DNA from: Candidatus Saccharimonadales bacterium
GTDB taxonomy: Bacteria > Patescibacteriota > Saccharimonadia > Saccharimonadales > JACDFO01
Direction of reading: 5' to 3'
Length of the DNA stretch: 64,000 nucleotides
Assembly: GCA_038255465.1 (NCBI GenBank)
Contig: JBBSLJ010000003.1
Span: 285 to 64,284, forward strand
Shown here: piece after piece, positions 12,117 through 40,359 of the stretch
How positions within the stretch are numbered: the stretch's first letter is position 1
Layout: every line of letters starts with the position of its first letter
The notes under the pieces: generated by a model
Databases searched by the model: none
Told to the model about the DNA's origin: nothing
The model's input: the letters and a program-made list of their open reading frames with translations, nothing else
Program-made: the position numbers and the translations under genes

Positions 12117-12422
12117 ATGAAAGCAGTTTGGAAAAACCAAGTTATTGCGGAAGCGCCCAAAGAAGAACTTATTTACATTGAGGGGAACTGGTACTTCCCA
12201 AAAAATACCACTAAACCTGAATTTTATCAGGCGAGTGACACGCATACGTCATGTCCGTGGAAGGGCGATGCAAGTTATTATCACGTGGTGGTTAACGGCG
12301 AGACCAATGAAGACGCGGCTTGGTATTATCCAGAGCCTAAACAATCAGCAATCGATCAAGTTAAAAAAGATTTCACTAGTTACGTAGCGTTCTGGCGCGG
12401 CGTTATTGTTTCCGAAGATTAA
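12117..12422 (+). CDS. DUF427 domain protein
   Basis: VIAEA...IEGNWYFP...SDTHTSCPWKGDASYY...AAWYYPEP matches the DUF427 pattern. Confidence 0.7.
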   Translation: MKAVWKNQVIAEAPKEELIYIEGNWYFPKNTTKPEFYQASDTHTSCPWKGDASYYHVVVNGETNEDAAWYYPEPKQSAIDQVKKDFTSYVAFWRGVIVSED

Positions 12423-12949
12423 TTTTTTAAGCGTTCAGCAAACTGTTTGCGGAACTTAGTGAGCTTTGGGTTAATGATTATCTGGCAGTAGGCCTGTTCT
12501 GGATTCTGGGCAAAGAAATTCTGATGATATTCCTCGGCAGGGTAAAACACATCAAGCGGTTTTAGCTCGGTAGTAACTGGCTTATCCCAATGTTTAGTTG
12601 CAAAGTTTTTAGTAACATCTTCGGCAATTTCTTTTTGATTTTCATCGTGATAAAGAATAATTGAGCGGTATTCTTCACCAACATCATTACCCTGTTGATT
12701 CGGGGTTGTCGGGTCATGGACGGCATAAAATATTTCGAGCAGGTCACGGTAGCTAATAATTTCGGAATCAAAAGTAACTTGAATAACTTCGGCATGCCCA
12801 GTGGCATCATAATGCATCTGTTGATAGGTTGGGTTCGTGGTATGTCCGCCGGCGTATCCTGAAACAACTTTGGTTACGCCTTTTAGCTGGCTATAAAGAG
12901 CCTCAATGCACCAGAAACAGCCACCGCCGATTGTCATCATTTCTTTCAC
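12419..12949 (-). CDS. msrA: peptide-methionine (S)-S-oxide reductase
   Basis: GGGCFWCIEA is the active-site motif. The start is uncertain, either the GTG at 12949 or the ATGs 9-12 nt downstream. Confidence 0.9.
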   Translation of the reverse strand: MKEMMTIGGGCFWCIEALYSQLKGVTKVVSGYAGGHTTNPTYQQMHYDATGHAEVIQVTFDSEIISYRDLLEIFYAVHDPTTPNQQGNDVGEEYRSIILYHDENQKEIAEDVTKNFATKHWDKPVTTELKPLDVFYPAEEYHQNFFAQNPEQAYCQIIINPKLTKFRKQFAERLKN

Positions 12950-12996
12950 TAGGCTATATTTTACTCTAGTCGAACAGAGTATGATATATTATTCGC

Positions 12997-13941
12997 ATGG
13001 CAACAACTAAGAAATCAACCAAAGCAAAGACCAAAACTACCAAAAAGCCAGCAGTTAAAGCGCGCACCACTGCTGTTAAAACCACTCGCGCTACCAAGAC
13101 TACTAAAGTAACAAAGCAGCCCGTCGTAAAAAAACCGGTTGTAAAAGCAGCAGCAGTTGTTAAAGCGAAAACAACTGAATTAACCGCTAATACATTACGC
13201 AAACTTAATTTTGTTAAGGCATTTGTCTTTGCTGCGCTTGCAGTACTGGCCGGTGTATTAATGAGCAGCGCCAGCTATCCGGTTAGCATTGGCTACCAGG
13301 CTAAAGATGCACTAGTTAGCCTTACGGCAGGCAAGACGGCTTTTGTGCATGGCAACCAAAACCTGTTTGATATCGAGGTTCGCTGGTTAGTTGTGACAAT
13401 TCTAGGTTTGGCAGCCGTGTTCTCATTGTTAATTGCAACTAGATTACGCGCTAAATACGAAGCGACACTTACGGATGGTGTTTCATCAATGCGTTGGATT
13501 GGCTGGGGCATTACTGCTGCGCTCATGGTAGAAACGGTGGCACTTTTGTCTGGTGTGAGCGATATCCTGACGCTCAAGCTTATCGCCGGTTTAATGCTCG
13601 TAACCTGTGCGCTGGCATGGGTTGCTGAGAAGCGCAACAAGCAGGCCGGGCGACCTGCCTGGAGCGAATTTGTAGTCAGCCTTTTCACCGGCTCACTGCC
13701 GTGGATGTTAATCGGTGGCTATGCTATTGCAACGTGGGTGTGGGGTTTGATCCGCTATCCTTGGTATGTTTACGCGCTTTACGCAGCATTGCTGGTCGGT
13801 TTCATTACACTTACCTTCACACAGTACAAGCGAATTAATGGCTGGAAGAATACGCTCATTGTTGAGCGAAACTATCTTCTGATCGGTCTTGTTACTAAAG
13901 TTGCGTTTGCTGTTATCCTCATCCTTGCATTTCAGAAATAA
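12997..13941 (+). CDS. heliorhodopsin-like 7TM membrane protein with Lys/Thr-rich N-terminal tail
   Basis: Seven predicted TM helices. Segments align to heliorhodopsin 48C12 as I recall it: RW at the TM3 start, AWVAEK vs GWLQEK, GSLPW vs GIVPW, and ERNYLLIGLVTKVAFAV vs ERAYIVLSLVAKSALAW, which includes the TM7 Lys (K301). See finding. Confidence 0.55.
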   Translation: MATTKKSTKAKTKTTKKPAVKARTTAVKTTRATKTTKVTKQPVVKKPVVKAAAVVKAKTTELTANTLRKLNFVKAFVFAALAVLAGVLMSSASYPVSIGYQAKDALVSLTAGKTAFVHGNQNLFDIEVRWLVVTILGLAAVFSLLIATRLRAKYEATLTDGVSSMRWIGWGITAALMVETVALLSGVSDILTLKLIAGLMLVTCALAWVAEKRNKQAGRPAWSEFVVSLFTGSLPWMLIGGYAIATWVWGLIRYPWYVYALYAALLVGFITLTFTQYKRINGWKNTLIVERNYLLIGLVTKVAFAVILILAFQK

Positions 13942-13947
13942 CTATAG

Positions 13948-15300
13948 ATGCTAGAAGAAGTAAAAATAGAGAAGCTGGTTCATGGCGGTCAAGGCCTGGG
14001 CCAGCTTTCTGACGGTAGAAAAATATTTGTATGGAATGCATTACCGGGTGAGCTGGTAAGGGTTGCGATTACAAAAAAGAAACGGGATTATGCAGAAGGC
14101 ATAGCTGATGAAATAATAAACCCGTCTAAAGAACGTATCGAGCCAATAGACCAGGCATATTTAAGTACAAGCCCCTGGCAAATAATGACCTATGAAGCCG
14201 AGAACAAATACAAAAAAGAAATCCTCACCGAATCTTTCTCGCGTGAAAAAATTCTTATGCCGGATGTTGACTTTGTCGCGGCAGGAAAGGCAGGCCCGGT
14301 TCGCTTTAGCGAATCTGAATTTACTTCAGAAGGGCCGATGTCGGGGCCCCCGTTGAGAGGGGATTCTCAATGGGGTGGCGATAACCCGCCCGGGGTTTTC
14401 CATTATCGGAATAAAATGGAATATTCATTCTGGGCAGATGAAGCAGGCTTGCACTTAGCATTATTTAAACGTGCCAGTCATGTTAAGCAAATTGTAGCAG
14501 GTAGCTCAATTGCGAGGCCAGAGATCGATGTAGTAGCAAATAATATTGTTGCAATATTGAATAAAAATGGTATTCGAGGATCTCAGCTTAAAACAATAAT
14601 TTTAAGAGTGAATAAAACGGGTGAAGTTGTTGCGGCGCTGTTTACGAAAGACGAACAGTTTCCTCTGTTAAATGAGCTGAAAACAGTTTGCAACGGAGTC
14701 ATTGTCTTTTATTCTAACCCTAAAAGTCCGGCCAGTGTGGTGACGCGTGAACTGTATACATTTGGCTCAGTTATTTTACGTGATGAGTTGTTCGGCAAAG
14801 AGATTATGTATAGCGTCAACTCGTTTTTTCAGGTAAATTTACCCGTATTTGAAACTGCTCTGCAGAGTATAAAAAACGCGACAAAGAACGAGCCGATAAT
14901 TATTGATATGTACGCTGGTGTGGGCGCTATTGGGCTGAGTGTCGGTGCCCAAAAGCTAATCGAGATTGATTCTGACAATGTCGCAATGGCCAAAGAAAAT
15001 GTTGGCTACAGCGGTGCTGCTGTAATCCAGGCAAGCACCGAGCAGGCATTAGAGCACATTACTGCCGACTCCTGTGTTATTTTTGACCCACCGCGCGCTG
15101 GTCTGCACGAAAAAGTTATAGGCCGTATTCTTAAGGAGCTACCAGACATGCTTGTGTACTTATCTTGCAACCCATCCACGCAGGCGCGTGATGTAGCTAG
15201 GCTACAATCTAAATATGAAATAGCCTTTTTGACGGGATACAACTTTTTCCCAAGAACGCCCCACATAGAATCACTTGCAATACTTCAAAAGAATGTATAA
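13948..15300 (+). CDS. RNA (uracil-5)-methyltransferase, RumA/TrmA family (TRAM + SAM MTase)
   Basis: It has a TRAM-like N-terminus (VKIEKLVHGGQGLG...GELVRV) and the FFQVN, DPPRAG and YLSCNPSTQARD motifs. Confidence 0.75.
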   Translation: MLEEVKIEKLVHGGQGLGQLSDGRKIFVWNALPGELVRVAITKKKRDYAEGIADEIINPSKERIEPIDQAYLSTSPWQIMTYEAENKYKKEILTESFSREKILMPDVDFVAAGKAGPVRFSESEFTSEGPMSGPPLRGDSQWGGDNPPGVFHYRNKMEYSFWADEAGLHLALFKRASHVKQIVAGSSIARPEIDVVANNIVAILNKNGIRGSQLKTIILRVNKTGEVVAALFTKDEQFPLLNELKTVCNGVIVFYSNPKSPASVVTRELYTFGSVILRDELFGKEIMYSVNSFFQVNLPVFETALQSIKNATKNEPIIIDMYAGVGAIGLSVGAQKLIEIDSDNVAMAKENVGYSGAAVIQASTEQALEHITADSCVIFDPPRAGLHEKVIGRILKELPDMLVYLSCNPSTQARDVARLQSKYEIAFLTGYNFFPRTPHIESLAILQKNV

Positions 15301-18565: not shown

Positions 18566-20032
18566 ATGTCAGAAGTTAGGCCCAGGTTTCTTTTAGATGA
18601 AGCCGGTGAACCCACAGATGGTGTTGGCGGTTTCGAAACTGAGTTTGGATTTCGGTGTGAGGTAAAAGGAAACCGAGCACTAAACACTAAAGCAACTCAA
18701 GACGTAGCATTCGAAGCCGGTGGGATGTATACCTGTGCTTATAAGGCCGACGGAGATCGGGAATATGTAGACGTGGGTCATCATCCGGAAATCTCGACAG
18801 CAGAAGATACGGATCCAGTAATTTCCGCACACCGTGTGATGCGCTCTTTTGTTAAAGCCCAACAAAAACATCAAATTAGTGCAGCGCAAGTTGGAAAATG
18901 TATGGTATCCAAGGGAAGTGAAGCCGCAATAAAAGTAAATCTTTTTGCGAATACCTGCGATCCGCACGGCAATACATGGGCAAGCCATAATAATGTTTTA
19001 GCGCCGCGAGGCCTGCCATTTGGCGACTACGTATACCCGCTGCTTATTCACAATGTCAGTCACATTGTCTGGTCAGGCGCGGGTCACGTACAACCAACAG
19101 AGGATGGCGGTTACCGCTATTGTTTAAGTGAACGAGCCGATCATTTTTGGGATACAGTAAGTCTTAATACGACTCAAAACAGACCGTTAGTTAATACAAG
19201 AGACGTGCCGTATGCTGACAAGCAACGCTTTCGTCGCATCCATGACATATCGGGTGACGCGGTGATGAGTCCATTCGTCTATGCGCTCAGAAGAGCGAGC
19301 GTCGCAATCATCTTGCGAGCATGCGGTTTAGGTGTAAAGTTCGATGACCTGATGCCAGAGAACCCAATTGCAGCTATCAGGACTATAAATCATGATCCTA
19401 CGCTGAAGGCAAAAGTAAGCTTGGCAGATGGTAGAAAAATGAGCGGATTAGACTTAGAACGATACGTTATGGAACGTTCGCTCGTGGCTACCAGAAGAGC
19501 TAAATGCTTAACAGCTCAAGATGAGTTATTTGGTAAAAAATGGGAAAAGCTGCTTGATGATCTTTCGCAAGACCCGGCGCTTTGCGAACGACGAGTTAAC
19601 TGGGTGGTTAAAGAGGAGTTAATTTTGCGTGAGCTGGAGGCTAAGTTTGCGCAAATAAACAGTCTTGGCAAAGATAGAGTGTCGGCCGGAGCTGTAGCAC
19701 TGCAAAAATCTATAGAATTTCATCGTTTGTCGCCGTATGAGGGCGCAGGCATGAAGTTGCTAAGAAGAGGTTTTTTTGAGGATTCCCCATCTGCCGACGT
19801 ATTAGAAAATGGCGTGCCATTACCGAATACCAGGGCCAAAGTCAGGGGTCAGGCAATTGGCCGCCTTATGACATTGAATCCGGAGGATGGTCGATACAAT
19901 CAGATCTTTTCGACCAGTTGGGACGTCCTTACACTACACTGGGTTACCAACGGCAGGACGATGATGAACGATCCGTTTAAAGCCGAAATGCCGGAATCCC
20001 TTGATCGACGCCTGCAACAACTCGGAGTCTAG
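18566..20032 (+). CDS. Pup-ligase/deamidase family protein (PafA/Dop homolog)
   Basis: GGFETEFG, EYVDVGHHPEISTAE, YCLSERADHFWDTVSLNTTQNRPLVNTRDVPYADKQRFRRIHDISGD, NPIAAIRTINHDPTLKAKVSLADGRKMSGLDL and TSWDVLTL align with mycobacterial PafA/Dop as I remember them. Confidence 0.8.
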   Translation: MSEVRPRFLLDEAGEPTDGVGGFETEFGFRCEVKGNRALNTKATQDVAFEAGGMYTCAYKADGDREYVDVGHHPEISTAEDTDPVISAHRVMRSFVKAQQKHQISAAQVGKCMVSKGSEAAIKVNLFANTCDPHGNTWASHNNVLAPRGLPFGDYVYPLLIHNVSHIVWSGAGHVQPTEDGGYRYCLSERADHFWDTVSLNTTQNRPLVNTRDVPYADKQRFRRIHDISGDAVMSPFVYALRRASVAIILRACGLGVKFDDLMPENPIAAIRTINHDPTLKAKVSLADGRKMSGLDLERYVMERSLVATRRAKCLTAQDELFGKKWEKLLDDLSQDPALCERRVNWVVKEELILRELEAKFAQINSLGKDRVSAGAVALQKSIEFHRLSPYEGAGMKLLRRGFFEDSPSADVLENGVPLPNTRAKVRGQAIGRLMTLNPEDGRYNQIFSTSWDVLTLHWVTNGRTMMNDPFKAEMPESLDRRLQQLGV

Positions 20033-20086: not shown

Positions 20087-20413
20087 ATGGCGCTAGAATT
20101 TACCAATATTCCCGACAGAACCGGTCCGGCAGTTTATCTTGTAGGCATGAGTATGCTCGAAAACCGACTTACTGCCTACGGCCAGGAACTTGACAAAGCA
20201 ACAGACGAAAAGACGCAGGTAGTCTATCTTGACGTCAGAAGCAAAGACGGAGCTCAAGTCGCAGATTTTTATGATATTCAGGAATCAAGTCTTCCGGCTG
20301 TCCTGATAGTTATGGACGACGATACGATTTATAAAAGTTGGTTTGGTCAGGATTTACCAAGGCCCGGAGATGTAGCACACGACGTAAAACGAATATCCGG
20401 ACATTCAGTGTAA
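20087..20413 (+). CDS. hypothetical protein (108 aa, possibly thioredoxin-like fold)
   Basis: ORF with a TATAAT box 9 nt upstream. The strand-helix pattern (VVYLDVRS...LPAVLIVMDDDTIYKSWFG) is only suggestive. Confidence 0.4.
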   Translation: MALEFTNIPDRTGPAVYLVGMSMLENRLTAYGQELDKATDEKTQVVYLDVRSKDGAQVADFYDIQESSLPAVLIVMDDDTIYKSWFGQDLPRPGDVAHDVKRISGHSV

Positions 20414-38122: not shown

Positions 38123-39295
38123 TTACTTCCTTATTAGTACTACTAGTTCACGGGCGACTATTTGATTTTCGCGGTGATAAATCAACTGGTCGTTTGAGGC
38201 GTGAACAAAACTTAGACGAGTATACCCCAAATCCTCGAGAGAATCAAGGGTTTTAAGGTGTTTAAAGCCGTTTTTGGTTTTCCAGGCCGGTACTGCAACG
38301 CAAAGCCGGAAACCGGGAGGAGTCTGATTAGCTAGATTACGCAAAAATTTTTTATGTATTGTGTCTACATCTTGCATAACGTCTGCCAGTACATCCGGCG
38401 AGGGTAGGGCAGAGAACGCTCGGCCAAGATACGTTTCGCCGGCAAGTGCCTCAAAAGGTTGCCACGCGTGCGACGTAGCATCGCCTGTCTCTAGCAAATA
38501 GATCACGCCCGCCACATCCTTACCGCTTGCCAGCCATTCCAGGTTGTCTTTGGAGTAATCAATCATCCGAGCCTCAATATCGCTGCCGTAAGCATTGTGA
38601 CCCATTAGGAGCGCTTCTTGCAGAACGACGCCGGTGCCACAAAAAGGATCGAGTACGGTGGCTTTTTCGGCGGGCTTAGCCAGGTTAATAATAATTTGAG
38701 CTAACTTTGGCGGCAGCATACCAACTTTGGCATCACGTTTAGGGCGGGCTTGATCTCGCGCAGCGTAGGCGCTGATATTTTGTACGGCTGTAGTTTGGGC
38801 TAGTGCGGTGCGGTCGCCGTCTCGAATCAATAACAGCTCCATACCAAGCGGCGCTTCTGCTAGTTTGTTATGCAGTACCTGTGCGGTGTTAAGCTCGCTA
38901 TCCTTGTTTGGGATGATCCGAATGCTGCGCCCCTCATTTTTGACTATTTTTTTAAGCGTCAGTGCACTTGCGTTTATGCGCGAAGGATTTATCGGTAAAC
39001 CGATTAGGCTTAGGCCAAAGCGAATTTTGCCAGGTGCTATGCAACAGACATGCTTTGGCAGTTCTTGGGCGATGTATTTTTCAAGCTGATACCAATCGGT
39101 ATATGGCAAGTAGGCCAGTAGCTTTGCAATGCGCGTGCTGCCGCCCAGTCGGTTAATGTTGATATCGCCAGGCTCAACATCAAGAACGGCTGCGCTGGCA
39201 CCGAGCCGTGTGATTTTATCGGCCCCAAACAGACTCTCGAGCTCTGTTATGCCCAGCGCTGGCTGACGTCCAAGAATTGCTATGCTTTGTGTCAT
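38123..39295 (-). CDS. putative RNA (guanine-N2) methyltransferase, Trm11/UPF0020-like
   Basis: MLPPKLAQIIINLA and VLDPFCGTGVVLQEALLMG (SAM motif I), with an N-terminal THUMP-like region. Confidence 0.55.
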   Translation of the reverse strand: MTQSIAILGRQPALGITELESLFGADKITRLGASAAVLDVEPGDININRLGGSTRIAKLLAYLPYTDWYQLEKYIAQELPKHVCCIAPGKIRFGLSLIGLPINPSRINASALTLKKIVKNEGRSIRIIPNKDSELNTAQVLHNKLAEAPLGMELLLIRDGDRTALAQTTAVQNISAYAARDQARPKRDAKVGMLPPKLAQIIINLAKPAEKATVLDPFCGTGVVLQEALLMGHNAYGSDIEARMIDYSKDNLEWLASGKDVAGVIYLLETGDATSHAWQPFEALAGETYLGRAFSALPSPDVLADVMQDVDTIHKKFLRNLANQTPPGFRLCVAVPAWKTKNGFKHLKTLDSLEDLGYTRLSFVHASNDQLIYHRENQIVARELVVLIRK

Positions 39296-39321: not shown

Positions 39322-40359
39322 ATGACTTCTGAAACCTCATTCTGGCGCCGGCACTGGCGGACTATCATAACGGCTATTACTTTTGCCGCGCTTGGCGGGT
39401 TGATGTATGCGCTGCGTGAGCAGATATTTAATACGTTTCGGAGCCTCGAGAACGTCAATCTGTTCATTTTACTGGCGATGCCAATGCTTCAATTTAGCCA
39501 TTATCATGTCGTAGCACTATTCTATCGACGGTTGTTTAGCATTTTAGATGAAACGGTGCGTTATAAATTTCTGTTTAAAACTGCGCTTGAATTAAATTTT
39601 GTTAATCTTGTGTTTCCGAGTGGTGGGGTCTCCGGATTCTCATATTTTAGCCTCCGAATGCGCACGAAAGGGGTTAGCGCAGGCAAGGCCTCGCTCGTTA
39701 TGACGATGCGTTTTGTGTTGCTGTTTATTTCGTTCCAAATATTTTTGGGGTTGGGGGTATTCTTGCTGGCGCTTGACGGCAAGGCTAATAATTTTATGAT
39801 TCTTATCGCCAGCTCGCTGGGAACACTCATGTTTGTCCTAACGGCTGGGCTAGCATTTGTCATCGGTAGCGAAAAACGCATAGACGGCTTTCTAACATTT
39901 GTCACAAAAGTAGTTAATAAAATAATCCAGATTGTACGGCCTAAGCACCCGGAAACAATTAATATAGTCGGGGCTCGAAAAGCCTTCAAGGAATACCATG
40001 CTAGCTATAAAATCTTGAGCAAGCAATACAAAAGACTTAAAAAACCGATGGTGTACGCACTACTTATTAATTTAACTGAGATTGCCACCGTTTACGTGGT
40101 TTTTGTGGCTTTTGGCCAGTGGATCAATCCTGGCGCCGTGATTATTGCCTATGCGGTTGCGAACTTTGCCGGTCTTATATCTGTCTTGCCGGGTGGCATC
40201 GGTATTTATGAAGCCCTGATGACCGGCGTATTGGCTGCCGGCGGGGTGCCGCCATCGTTAAGCCTGCCGATCATTGTGGCATACCGTGTGTTGAACATTG
40301 GTATTCAGCTGCCGGCCGGCGGGTACTTTTATAACCGCGCGGTTCACGAAAAAACATAA
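39322..40359 (+). CDS. UPF0104 / lysylphosphatidylglycerol-synthase-TM-like (flippase-like) membrane protein
   Basis: A protein of ~8 TM with the typical PGGIGIYEA motif near the C-terminus. Confidence 0.6.
   Translation: MTSETSFWRRHWRTIITAITFAALGGLMYALREQIFNTFRSLENVNLFILLAMPMLQFSHYHVVALFYRRLFSILDETVRYKFLFKTALELNFVNLVFPSGGVSGFSYFSLRMRTKGVSAGKASLVMTMRFVLLFISFQIFLGLGVFLLALDGKANNFMILIASSLGTLMFVLTAGLAFVIGSEKRIDGFLTFVTKVVNKIIQIVRPKHPETINIVGARKAFKEYHASYKILSKQYKRLKKPMVYALLINLTEIATVYVVFVAFGQWINPGAVIIAYAVANFAGLISVLPGGIGIYEALMTGVLAAGGVPPSLSLPIIVAYRVLNIGIQLPAGGYFYNRAVHEKT

Follow-up and report, generated by a model that had tools for sequence, protein, structure and literature searches.

The stretch of DNA considered here, 64,000 nucleotides in length and hereafter called the window, comes from a Candidatus Saccharimonadales bacterium (GenBank assembly GCA_038255465.1, contig JBBSLJ010000003.1, positions 285 to 64,284 of the forward strand). 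At 12997-13941 it carries a gene whose product is a genuine heliorhodopsin (HeR)-family protein with seven transmembrane (TM) helices. By alignment, this protein departs from the classical HeR active site in three respects, namely the counterion, the SxxxK motif and the His pair, and its N-terminus is extended by a lysine-rich tail. The features of the gene are listed below, with residue equivalences to two HeRs of solved structure, 48C12 and TaHeR, as fixed by HMMER alignments.

12997-13941, forward strand: heliorhodopsin-family gene, 314 aa and a TAA stop codon
12997-13194, forward strand: polycationic, almost acid-free tail, residues 1-66 (17 K, 2 R, 1 E), predicted to be disordered from an AlphaFold2 (AF2) model and cytoplasmic from HeR topology and the positive-inside count
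12997-13047, forward strand: conserved N-terminal 17-mer MATTKKSTKAKTKTTKK, recognized by its match score across the subfamily
13195-13938, forward strand: seven-helix heliorhodopsin core, residues 67-314, with an AB-loop beta-hairpin (Pfam, AF2, Foldseek)
13228-13230, forward strand: F78, in place of 48C12 H23 (alignment)
13423-13425, forward strand: S143, in place of 48C12 H80 and TaHeR H82 (alignment)
13501-13503, forward strand: G169, at the counterion position, 48C12 E107 and TaHeR E108 (alignment)
13531-13533, forward strand: E179, a subfamily-conserved Glu of helix C in the normally hydrophobic extracellular half (48C12 V117)
13576-13578, forward strand: K194, a near-invariant subfamily signature Lys of helix D (48C12 L132)
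13885-13887, forward strand: G297, at 48C12 S237, giving the motif GLVTK, not SxxxK, and lying at the alternative counterion site of relatives (alignment)
13897-13899 (AAA), forward strand: K301, the TM7 Lys equivalent to the Schiff-base Lys 48C12 K241 and TaHeR K238 (alignment)

Fold, active site and N-terminal tail

A preliminary description of the locus, made by a model from the letters and the translated open reading frames (ORFs), had aligned five segments of the protein with 48C12 and had proposed a HeR fold in which the TM7 Lys is kept and the counterion and His pair are replaced. The 314-aa ORF and its sequence are as reported there, all five segments were reproduced in HMMER alignments against HeR chains of the PDB, and the family assignment is fully supported. 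Both curated cutoffs are passed, with a score of 123.3 bits against Pfam PF18761 (Heliorhodopsin; cutoff 26.7), spanning residues 67-306, and of 120 bits against the NCBIfam equivalog NF038020, 'heliorhodopsin HeR' (cutoff 100). Among solved structures, TaHeR and 48C12 are matched by phmmer at E = 1e-18 to 1e-15, and with a profile of 55 relatives as query, the match to TaHeR has an E value of 2e-31 and covers all seven helices. The AF2 model, built on the family alignment, has helices at residues 64-88, 128-147, 164-184, 190-217, 223-248, 256-280 and 286-311, as well as AB-loop beta-hairpin strands at 93-103 and 116-127, and the predicted local distance difference test score (pLDDT) of the core is 81-98 in 10-residue blocks. 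In Foldseek, the model superposes on the crystal structure of TaHeR (6is6) with a TM-score of 0.91 and a root-mean-square deviation (rmsd) of 1.9 Å, and on 48C12 with a TM-score of ~0.86; the top 10 matches are HeRs only (TMt 0.84-0.92), a large gap separating them from type-1 rhodopsins (<=0.67). An identical protein, P0001, is already public in NCBI and Logan sources, where it has no name, and a relative from the same clade, 69% identical, carries the NCBI name 'heliorhodopsin HeR'.

For the four key residues named at the outset (K301, G169, F78 and S143), both the codons and the mapping are correct. The alignments add two further changes, G297 at the position of 48C12 S237 and A139 at that of S76, as well as replacements in the surrounding shell of 48C12 N101 by S163 and of Y108 by W170. 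Much else is kept: R104, W105 and E149 of 48C12 are present as R166, W167 and E211, and P172/W173, F206, Q213 and E230/R231 as P235/W236, F269, Q276 and E290/R291. The retained set thus comprises residues of the retinal pocket (W167, M177, P235/W236, F269 and Q276) and a cytoplasmic cluster (R166, E211 and E290/R291). There is no carboxylate at G169, nor at the alternative site, G297. Additionally, the upstream Arg, R166, is invariant in 120 of 120 homologues, and a small neutral residue at the counterion position together with this conserved Arg is the pattern that would be expected of an anion-stabilized, halorhodopsin-like Schiff base. Two charged residues mark the extracellular half of the protein. 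The position of E179 is Glu in 28 of 33 members of the protein's clade and in 68 of 87 other members, and K194 is present in 117 of 119 homologues and in 109 of 139 representatives chosen without bias (see below). K194 was considered as an alternative Schiff-base Lys and rejected, as the alignment puts it extracellular-ward in helix D, two turns past the ring-end pocket residues.

Residues 1-60 hold 17 Lys and 2 Arg and no Asp or Glu, as had been stated, and the composition of the whole 66-residue tail is dominated by Thr (18), Lys (17), Ala (11) and Val (9), with only 3 Pro. Residues 6-56 have pLDDT values <50 and are without secondary structure in the AF2 model. The cytoplasmic location claimed for the tail fits the inverted topology of HeRs and the positive-inside count, in which the inherited cytoplasmic loops have 12 Lys and Arg residues vs 4 in the extracellular loops, to which the tail adds 19. 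Altogether, the tail is a disordered segment of ~60 residues with a net charge of ~+18, on what is predicted to be the cytoplasmic side. The label 'histone-H1-like', on the other hand, should go, the likeness being a compositional analogy only; Pfam searches with three tails at E <= 10 returned zero families, and the whole protein has no histone-family match in Pfam. A protein search with the tail alone, a low-complexity sequence, gave no scoring match.

Within the tail, conservation is concentrated at the N-terminus. Across 90 unbiased subfamily representatives, the match of the 17-mer to the window protein is 0.53, vs 0.25 for a compositional control, 0.13 for the remainder of the tail and 0.37 for the TM core; among closer homologues, a word-biased set, the values are 0.73 for the 17-mer and 0.43 for the TM core. 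At the level of DNA, a single-protein scan for related loci gave 8, and the set used throughout comprises 12 loci in all, including the window; the motif KAKTKTTK is identical in 10 of these 12. In ~210 kb of Saccharibacteria DNA, the window tail ranks among the most Lys-rich acid-free segments, and the other top segments are nearly all HeR tails from the related loci. A metagenome scan with back-translated KAKTKTTK was uninformative as to whether the motif is exclusive to HeRs, with 119 of 120 matches occurring by chance in unrelated or spurious ORFs. As a separate observation on cationic termini, the SecA orthologues of loci L003, L004 and L005 (e.g. L005 17621-20230) end in strongly Lys/Arg-rich tails, and these SecA C-tails are among the most cationic segments of the DNA examined, behind the HeR tails.

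Lysine and carboxylate across the subfamily

The wider subfamily was delimited by running the TM domain by itself in an exhaustive HMMER search against representatives of clusters formed at 50% identity, of which 768 matched at E <= 1e-3 and 103 at E <= 1e-30. The cluster of the window protein stands alone, its representative being 70% identical and the next best <50%. Counts of tails and signature residues refer to the 139 nearest full-length representatives, an unbiased set. A tail of at least 30 aa occurs in 91 of the 139, with a median of 63 residues, 28% Lys plus Arg and 2.8% Asp plus Glu; the His pair is lost in nearly all of the 139, and most have Glu at the position of E179. The H80 position is Pro, Ser or Ala across the subfamily, and His occupies the H23 position in 4 of 120 homologues. 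Both the tail and the missing His pair, which the preliminary description had reported for this one protein, are therefore the norm of the subfamily and not peculiar to the window protein. Based on these sequence comparisons, the subfamily is a divergent HeR group typical of Saccharibacteria and other bacteria of the candidate phyla radiation (CPR), and the only trait specific to the clade of the window protein is the loss of every carboxylate near the Lys. At the counterion position, that clade has Gly, Ala, Thr, Ser or Cys, whereas most other subfamily members have Asp or Glu.

How the Lys and its carboxylate behave together emerges from a tally, over 117 cluster representatives, of the residues at positions 241, 107 and 237 (48C12 numbering). 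A Lys at 241 is combined with an acid at 107 in 61 representatives, and with an acid at 237, in helix G, and none at 107 in a further 22. Where 241 is Arg, an acid is present in 12 of 13 representatives, and where it is neither Lys nor Arg, an acid is absent from 13 of 14. Of the 103 representatives with Lys or Arg at 241, 95 have a carboxylate at 107 or 237, and this co-occurrence, along with the joint loss of the two, implies that the subfamily uses the site as a functional ion pair. Only 7 clusters have Lys at 241 with an acid at neither position, and the cluster of the window protein (G169, G297, K301) is one of them. The pocket residues do not separate Lys-bearing from Lys-less members, being equally conserved in both. 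Elsewhere in the subfamily, the Lys is replaced by Arg, Leu, Thr, Val, Ala, Gln or Ile.

In a neighbour-joining tree, the counterion-less clade is monophyletic and consists of two branches. In the branch containing the window protein, which spans ~60-82% identity, each of the sequences shown has the Lys. Its sister branch has Gln, His or Tyr instead, with no change to the tail, the pocket residues or the remaining protein.

Two variants of the ion pair may be recorded in their own right. Members with a carboxylate in helix G include P0152, P0162, P0171, P0172, P0181 and P0184, and in them the counterion, as Asp or Glu, appears to have moved to the site equivalent to D212 of bacteriorhodopsin. 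Members with Arg in place of Lys include P0042, P0049, P0055, P0145 and P0168, and in these a salt bridge between Arg and carboxylate may mimic the protonated Schiff base.

Promoter, 5' coding region and gene neighbourhood

12982-12990, forward strand: extended -10 element (TG at 12982-83, TATATT at 12985-90), 6 nt before the ATG, conserved as TGnTAnAnT

The element TGnTAnAnT ends 6-7 nt 5' of the HeR ATG in all 12 loci (the window and 11 related loci), its columns being invariant in alignment, and there is no Shine-Dalgarno sequence upstream of the HeR gene. A promoter that abuts the ATG, combined with the lack of a Shine-Dalgarno sequence, implies a leaderless mRNA, which the HeR transcript appears to be, with its transcription start site predicted from sequence. 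This arrangement supports M1 as the true start, and thereby the translation of the tail; the first Met codon after M1 is M89, which lies inside TM1. A promoter-like site at 12931-12960 was rejected as the main promoter, as it is unconserved in the related loci, unlike the extended -10 element next to the ATG.

The start of the coding region is itself unusual. Although the third positions of the Thr codons in the motif vary freely, the order of amino acids is conserved, and the Lys codons of KAKTKTTK (13021-13044) are fixed by position as AAG, AAG, AAA and AAA, each in 9-10 of 10 loci (the window and the homologous positions in L002-L009 and L131). Since AAA outnumbers AAG by 2:1 genome-wide, and since the TM domains of the HeRs of the compared loci are only 33-45% identical, the fixed Lys codons point to an extra, nucleotide-level constraint on the first ~50 nt of the HeR mRNA. 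Those ~50 nt are predicted to be unpaired, the predicted RNA fold of the first 150 nt does not differ from that of shuffled sequences (z = +0.98), and the 198 nt of the tail are rich in A and C (A 86, C 50, G 33, T 29).

Many other starts in the window (e.g. 5077, 20442, 26196, 27303, 38123/39322, 45162, 55091 and 56695) are likewise preceded at 5-8 nt by -10-like hexamers, often TGnTAnnnT or TATAAT, with no Shine-Dalgarno sequence, and leaderless mRNAs appear to be common in the source Saccharibacteria genome. These other putatively leaderless genes have ordinary N-termini, with no cationic tails.

The genes that flank the HeR gene are as follows.

12117-12422, forward strand: DUF427 (NTP_transf_9) protein, a frequent member of the neighbourhood (Pfam)
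12419-12949, reverse strand: MsrA, peptide methionine sulfoxide reductase (Pfam PMSR, E = 1.5e-62; NCBIfam msrA, 185 bits vs a cutoff of 108)
13948-15300, forward strand: RlmD/RumA-like TRAM-domain RNA m5U methyltransferase (Pfam TRAM and tRNA_U5-meth_tr)

The methyltransferase, which scores 158 bits against NCBIfam rumA, under the equivalog cutoff, starts 6 nt past the HeR stop codon, and in 9 of the 11 loci that could be evaluated it is the next gene after HeR; it is probably a co-transcribed operon partner of the HeR gene. Directly upstream of HeR in 9 of the 12 loci is msrA. The window copy of msrA has the opposite orientation to that of the eight related loci with msrA upstream; it diverges from the HeR gene, sharing with it a promoter region of 47 bp, and overlaps by 4 nt the 3' end of the convergent DUF427 gene, which is also found upstream in L005, L007, L009 and L132. 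Over the 12 loci, the order of genes is proS, greA, lysS, (DUF427), msrA, HeR and the RlmD-like methyltransferase, continuing with rsmE, a PD-(D/E)XK protein, serS, hpf and secA. All 8 of 8 relatives among species-representative genomes are Candidatus Saccharibacteria / Saccharimonadales metagenome-assembled genomes, and the housekeeping proteins of the window are mostly 55-80% identical to those of these relatives. Because it holds the same position across the 12 loci, the HeR gene is a vertically inherited orthologue at a fixed housekeeping locus; horizontal acquisition was considered and rejected on the grounds of ordinary GC content and conserved synteny.

A scan of 30 window ORFs found no Pfam family for retinal, carotenoid or bac_rhodopsin functions, in agreement with the earlier statement that the window has no genes for retinal biosynthesis. 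The rest of the window ORFs look like housekeeping genes, many of them matching genes of the related Saccharibacteria loci, and a search of the whole window with Rfam gave no match. Two further observations concern genes remote from the HeR locus. At 18566-20032 lies a gene for a member of the Pup-ligase family (PF03136, E = 1e-70), with an ORF of 108 aa after it at 20087-20413; together they have the appearance of a pupylation-like system, here in a genome of the CPR. The gene at 39322-40359, whose product has a lysyl-phosphatidylglycerol synthase TM-region domain (PF03706), is divergent from a methyltransferase-like gene at 38123-39295, and the two genes of this pair have near-palindromic promoter regions.

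Function and comparison with known systems

The reading that we prefer, and to which we assign about an even chance, is that the window protein is a retinal-scavenging HeR that uses an anion or water as a surrogate counterion and whose tail tethers a polyanionic partner. All-trans-retinal scavenged from outside would be bound at K301, and its protonated Schiff base would be stabilized by a diffusible anion, such as chloride, or by water in a remodelled cavity, so that the protein would be the natural counterpart of the mutants 48C12 E107A and TaHeR E108A. It would not be a pump, acting instead through its cationic cytoplasmic face, as other HeRs do, and the disordered tail would serve as an electrostatic tether for a partner that may be RNA or the ribosome, DNA, an acidic protein or an acidic lipid. 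Favouring this reading are the retention of K301 throughout its branch, the retention of the pocket residues and the invariance of R166. In 48C12 E107A/Q and TaHeR E108A, a visible pigment still forms, with the protonated Schiff base stabilized by chloride or nitrate (PMC9385722, PMC7049168), and Besaw et al. predict an anion as surrogate counterion for 'most HeRs' (PMC9385722). Saccharibacteria do not synthesize retinal, and their type-1 rhodopsins load external retinal within seconds (PMC9296517). Moreover, AbHeR binds glutamine synthetase through cationic cytoplasmic residues (PMC9529153). As to the partner of the tail, the probable co-transcription with the RlmD-like methyltransferase and the presence nearby of rsmE and hpf weakly suggest RNA or the ribosome, and the conserved msrA neighbour hints weakly at a link to oxidative stress, which fits the proposal of Bulzu et al.

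Several points weigh against this reading. The sister branch has lost the Lys (to Gln, His or Tyr) yet has kept the tail, the pocket and the rest of the protein, and repeated loss of the Lys implies that the conserved core function does not strictly need covalently bound retinal. The polar shell that holds water or an anion in 48C12 and TaHeR is largely replaced (F78, S143, A139, G297, S163 and W170), and in V2HeR3 neutralization of the counterion (E105Q) abolishes visible absorption (PMC9448325). The tail, for its part, has no homology to any Pfam family, part of the conservation of the first codons is at the level of nucleotides (position-specific AAG or AAA), and the gene neighbours could reflect general synteny, not a functional link.

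The same facts nourish a strong rival, which we hold tentatively and with a smaller share of the probability: that the protein is a retinal-free member of the HeR fold in which the 7TM core anchors or scaffolds the cationic tail and the cytoplasmic face, with K301 as a relic or a structural residue. Under this alternative, the disappearance of all carboxylates near the Lys, and of the Ser/His/Asn shell with them, would be expected, as would a sister branch in which the Lys is gone and nothing else has visibly changed. It also accommodates the recurrence of Lys-less members (14 of the 117 cluster representatives have neither Lys nor Arg, and 13 have Arg), the fact that the best-conserved segment is the N-terminus of the tail, not the retinal site, and the lack of genes for retinal synthesis in the window and in Saccharibacteria generally (PMC9296517). 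However, K301 is present in every sequence shown of a branch that spans ~60-82% identity, the pocket residues W167, W236, P235, F269, Q276 and M177 are retained, counterion mutants of two HeRs still form pigment with chloride, and an unpaired Lys buried in the middle of the membrane would carry a high energetic cost if neither chromophore nor anion were present. The retinal-binding and the retinal-free reading, which correspond to the two alternatives already raised in the preliminary description, are supported about equally, retinal binding being ranked slightly ahead. A more speculative version, doubtful in our estimation, joins elements of the two: the subfamily would be chiefly a membrane anchor for a polycationic N-terminal peptide, doing a job that needs no retinal, to judge by the repeated loss of the Lys, and the lineage of the window protein, its Lys kept with no carboxylate nearby, would be the first natural anion (chloride)-dependent HeR. 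That job might be the docking of RNA or ribosomes beside the co-operonic RlmD-like methyltransferase, or the tethering of the nucleoid.

The remaining explanations fare worse. It is improbable that retinal is bound through an unprotonated Schiff base, making the protein a sensor that absorbs in the ultraviolet or violet. With no carboxylate at 169 or 297, with V2HeR3 E105Q lacking visible absorption (PMC9448325), and with hydrophobic or small residues around the Lys (F78, A139, G297 and W170) that disfavour a buried charge, such a state is conceivable, but the Schiff base of 48C12 E107A/Q and TaHeR E108A stays protonated at neutral pH with a bound anion, and R166 and the clade-typical K74 would give a positive potential that favours anion uptake. 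More improbable still is an ion-transporting HeR in which E179 and K194 open a path for protons or ions, in the manner of E191 in the viral V2HeR3. These two conserved charges, in helices C and D, respectively, recommend the idea, as a carboxylate in the extracellular half is a hallmark of proton-transporting viral HeRs (PMC9448325) and Kovalev et al. flag such residues as likely to define function (PMC7049168). Nevertheless, the current of V2HeR3 requires the counterion Glu, which the window protein lacks, E179 and K194 persist in Lys-less members, and the two may simply form a structural salt bridge of the C-D hairpin. Lastly, that the tail is not a functional domain, but a mis-called start or a by-product of an unstructured, A/C-rich leaderless 5' region, has a very slight probability, for although the A/C-rich DNA, the ~50 nt at the 5' end predicted to be unpaired and the Lys codons fixed against a genome AAA:AAG ratio of 2:1 lend it something, the promoter abuts the ATG in 12 of 12 loci with no Met codon between M1 and M89, the order of amino acids in the motif is conserved as Thr third positions vary, acidic residues are excluded over ~60 codons though G-starting Ala and Val codons are common, the putatively leaderless genes of the window otherwise have ordinary N-termini, and the 150-nt fold does not differ from that of shuffles (z = +0.98).

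The window protein overturns nothing in current understanding, the mechanism outlined above being one that we infer. Its interest lies in the context that it gives to a family whose function is largely unsolved, with few isolated reports, and whose biophysics rests on a handful of members that have a Glu counterion and a His pair. Here is a large subfamily, inherited vertically among symbiotic bacteria of ultra-small size, in which Lys and carboxylate are kept together, moved, exchanged for an Arg pair or lost together. The few lineages that have the Lys and no carboxylate are natural tests of counterion chemistry, including surrogate anions, and their Lys-less sisters allow a direct comparison as to whether the core function needs retinal. 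Additionally, the conserved polycationic tail is a tractable handle for a search for partners.

In the published catalogues, 80 HeRs are reported in Saccharimonadia, and N-terminal extension variants, ntv1-10, are noted (PMC9166423, PMC8612252). Bulzu et al. (2021), who propose the link between HeRs and oxidative stress, kept only sequences with SxxxK in TM7 (PMC8612252), and Chiriac et al. (2022) checked candidates for SxxxK (PMC9166423); by that criterion, proteins with GLVTK and their Lys-less relatives are not matched, and surveys that require SxxxK would miss them. These catalogues concern the same organisms and the same family, and they contain no description of the cationic tail motif or of a lost counterion. 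In the HeR literature, of which our coverage is incomplete, so that a prior description is possible, we did not find a natural counterion-less, Lys-bearing clade, the coupled Lys/carboxylate pattern with its relocation to helix G and repeated loss, or the conserved cationic head motif and HeRs with a Lys-rich N-terminus.

Compared with TaHeR (6is6, 7u55) and 48C12 (6su3, 6uh3), the window protein is of the same family and fold, including the AB-loop hairpin (TM-scores of 0.86-0.92, rmsd of 1.9-3 Å), and it shares with them the TM7 Lys, the cytoplasmic and pocket residues and the dimer residues D127 and Y179. It differs in being only 21-23% identical, in the exchanges Glu to Gly, Ser237 to Gly, Ser76 to Ala, His23 to Phe and His80 to Ser, in the gain of the charges E179 and K194 in the extracellular half, and in its 66-residue cationic tail, the N-terminus of 48C12 being ~11 residues long. 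With 48C12 E107A/E107Q and TaHeR E108A it has in common a neutral counterion position and a retained Lys. Those mutants hold the protonated Schiff base by binding Cl-, Br- or NO3- (Singh 2019, as relayed in PMC7049168; PMC9385722), and at low pH TaHeR itself has chloride in the Schiff-base cavity (Besaw 2022, PMC9385722). They are laboratory-made and their polar cavity (His23, His80, Ser76 and Ser237) is intact, whereas the window protein is natural and its shell is replaced as well.

Outside the family, there are two analogies, and they are offered as analogies only. Among type-1 relatives known as Rh-noK, the rhodopsin fold has outlasted the Schiff-base Lys, which is also the situation of the sister branch described above. 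Similarly, the disordered polycationic tails of YidC2 and Oxa1 can dock ribosomes, although these tails are C-terminal and belong to another family. Parallels for the tail within the HeRs are found in the domain-fused MORN-HeR and Znf-HeR and in the AbHeR-glutamine synthetase pair, where a cytoplasmic N-terminal addition or a cationic face engages partners; in AbHeR, K216, K217 and K220 are needed for the binding of glutamine synthetase (PMC9529153). In contrast to these, the window protein has, in place of a folded domain, a low-complexity polycation that is predicted to be disordered and begins with a short conserved head.

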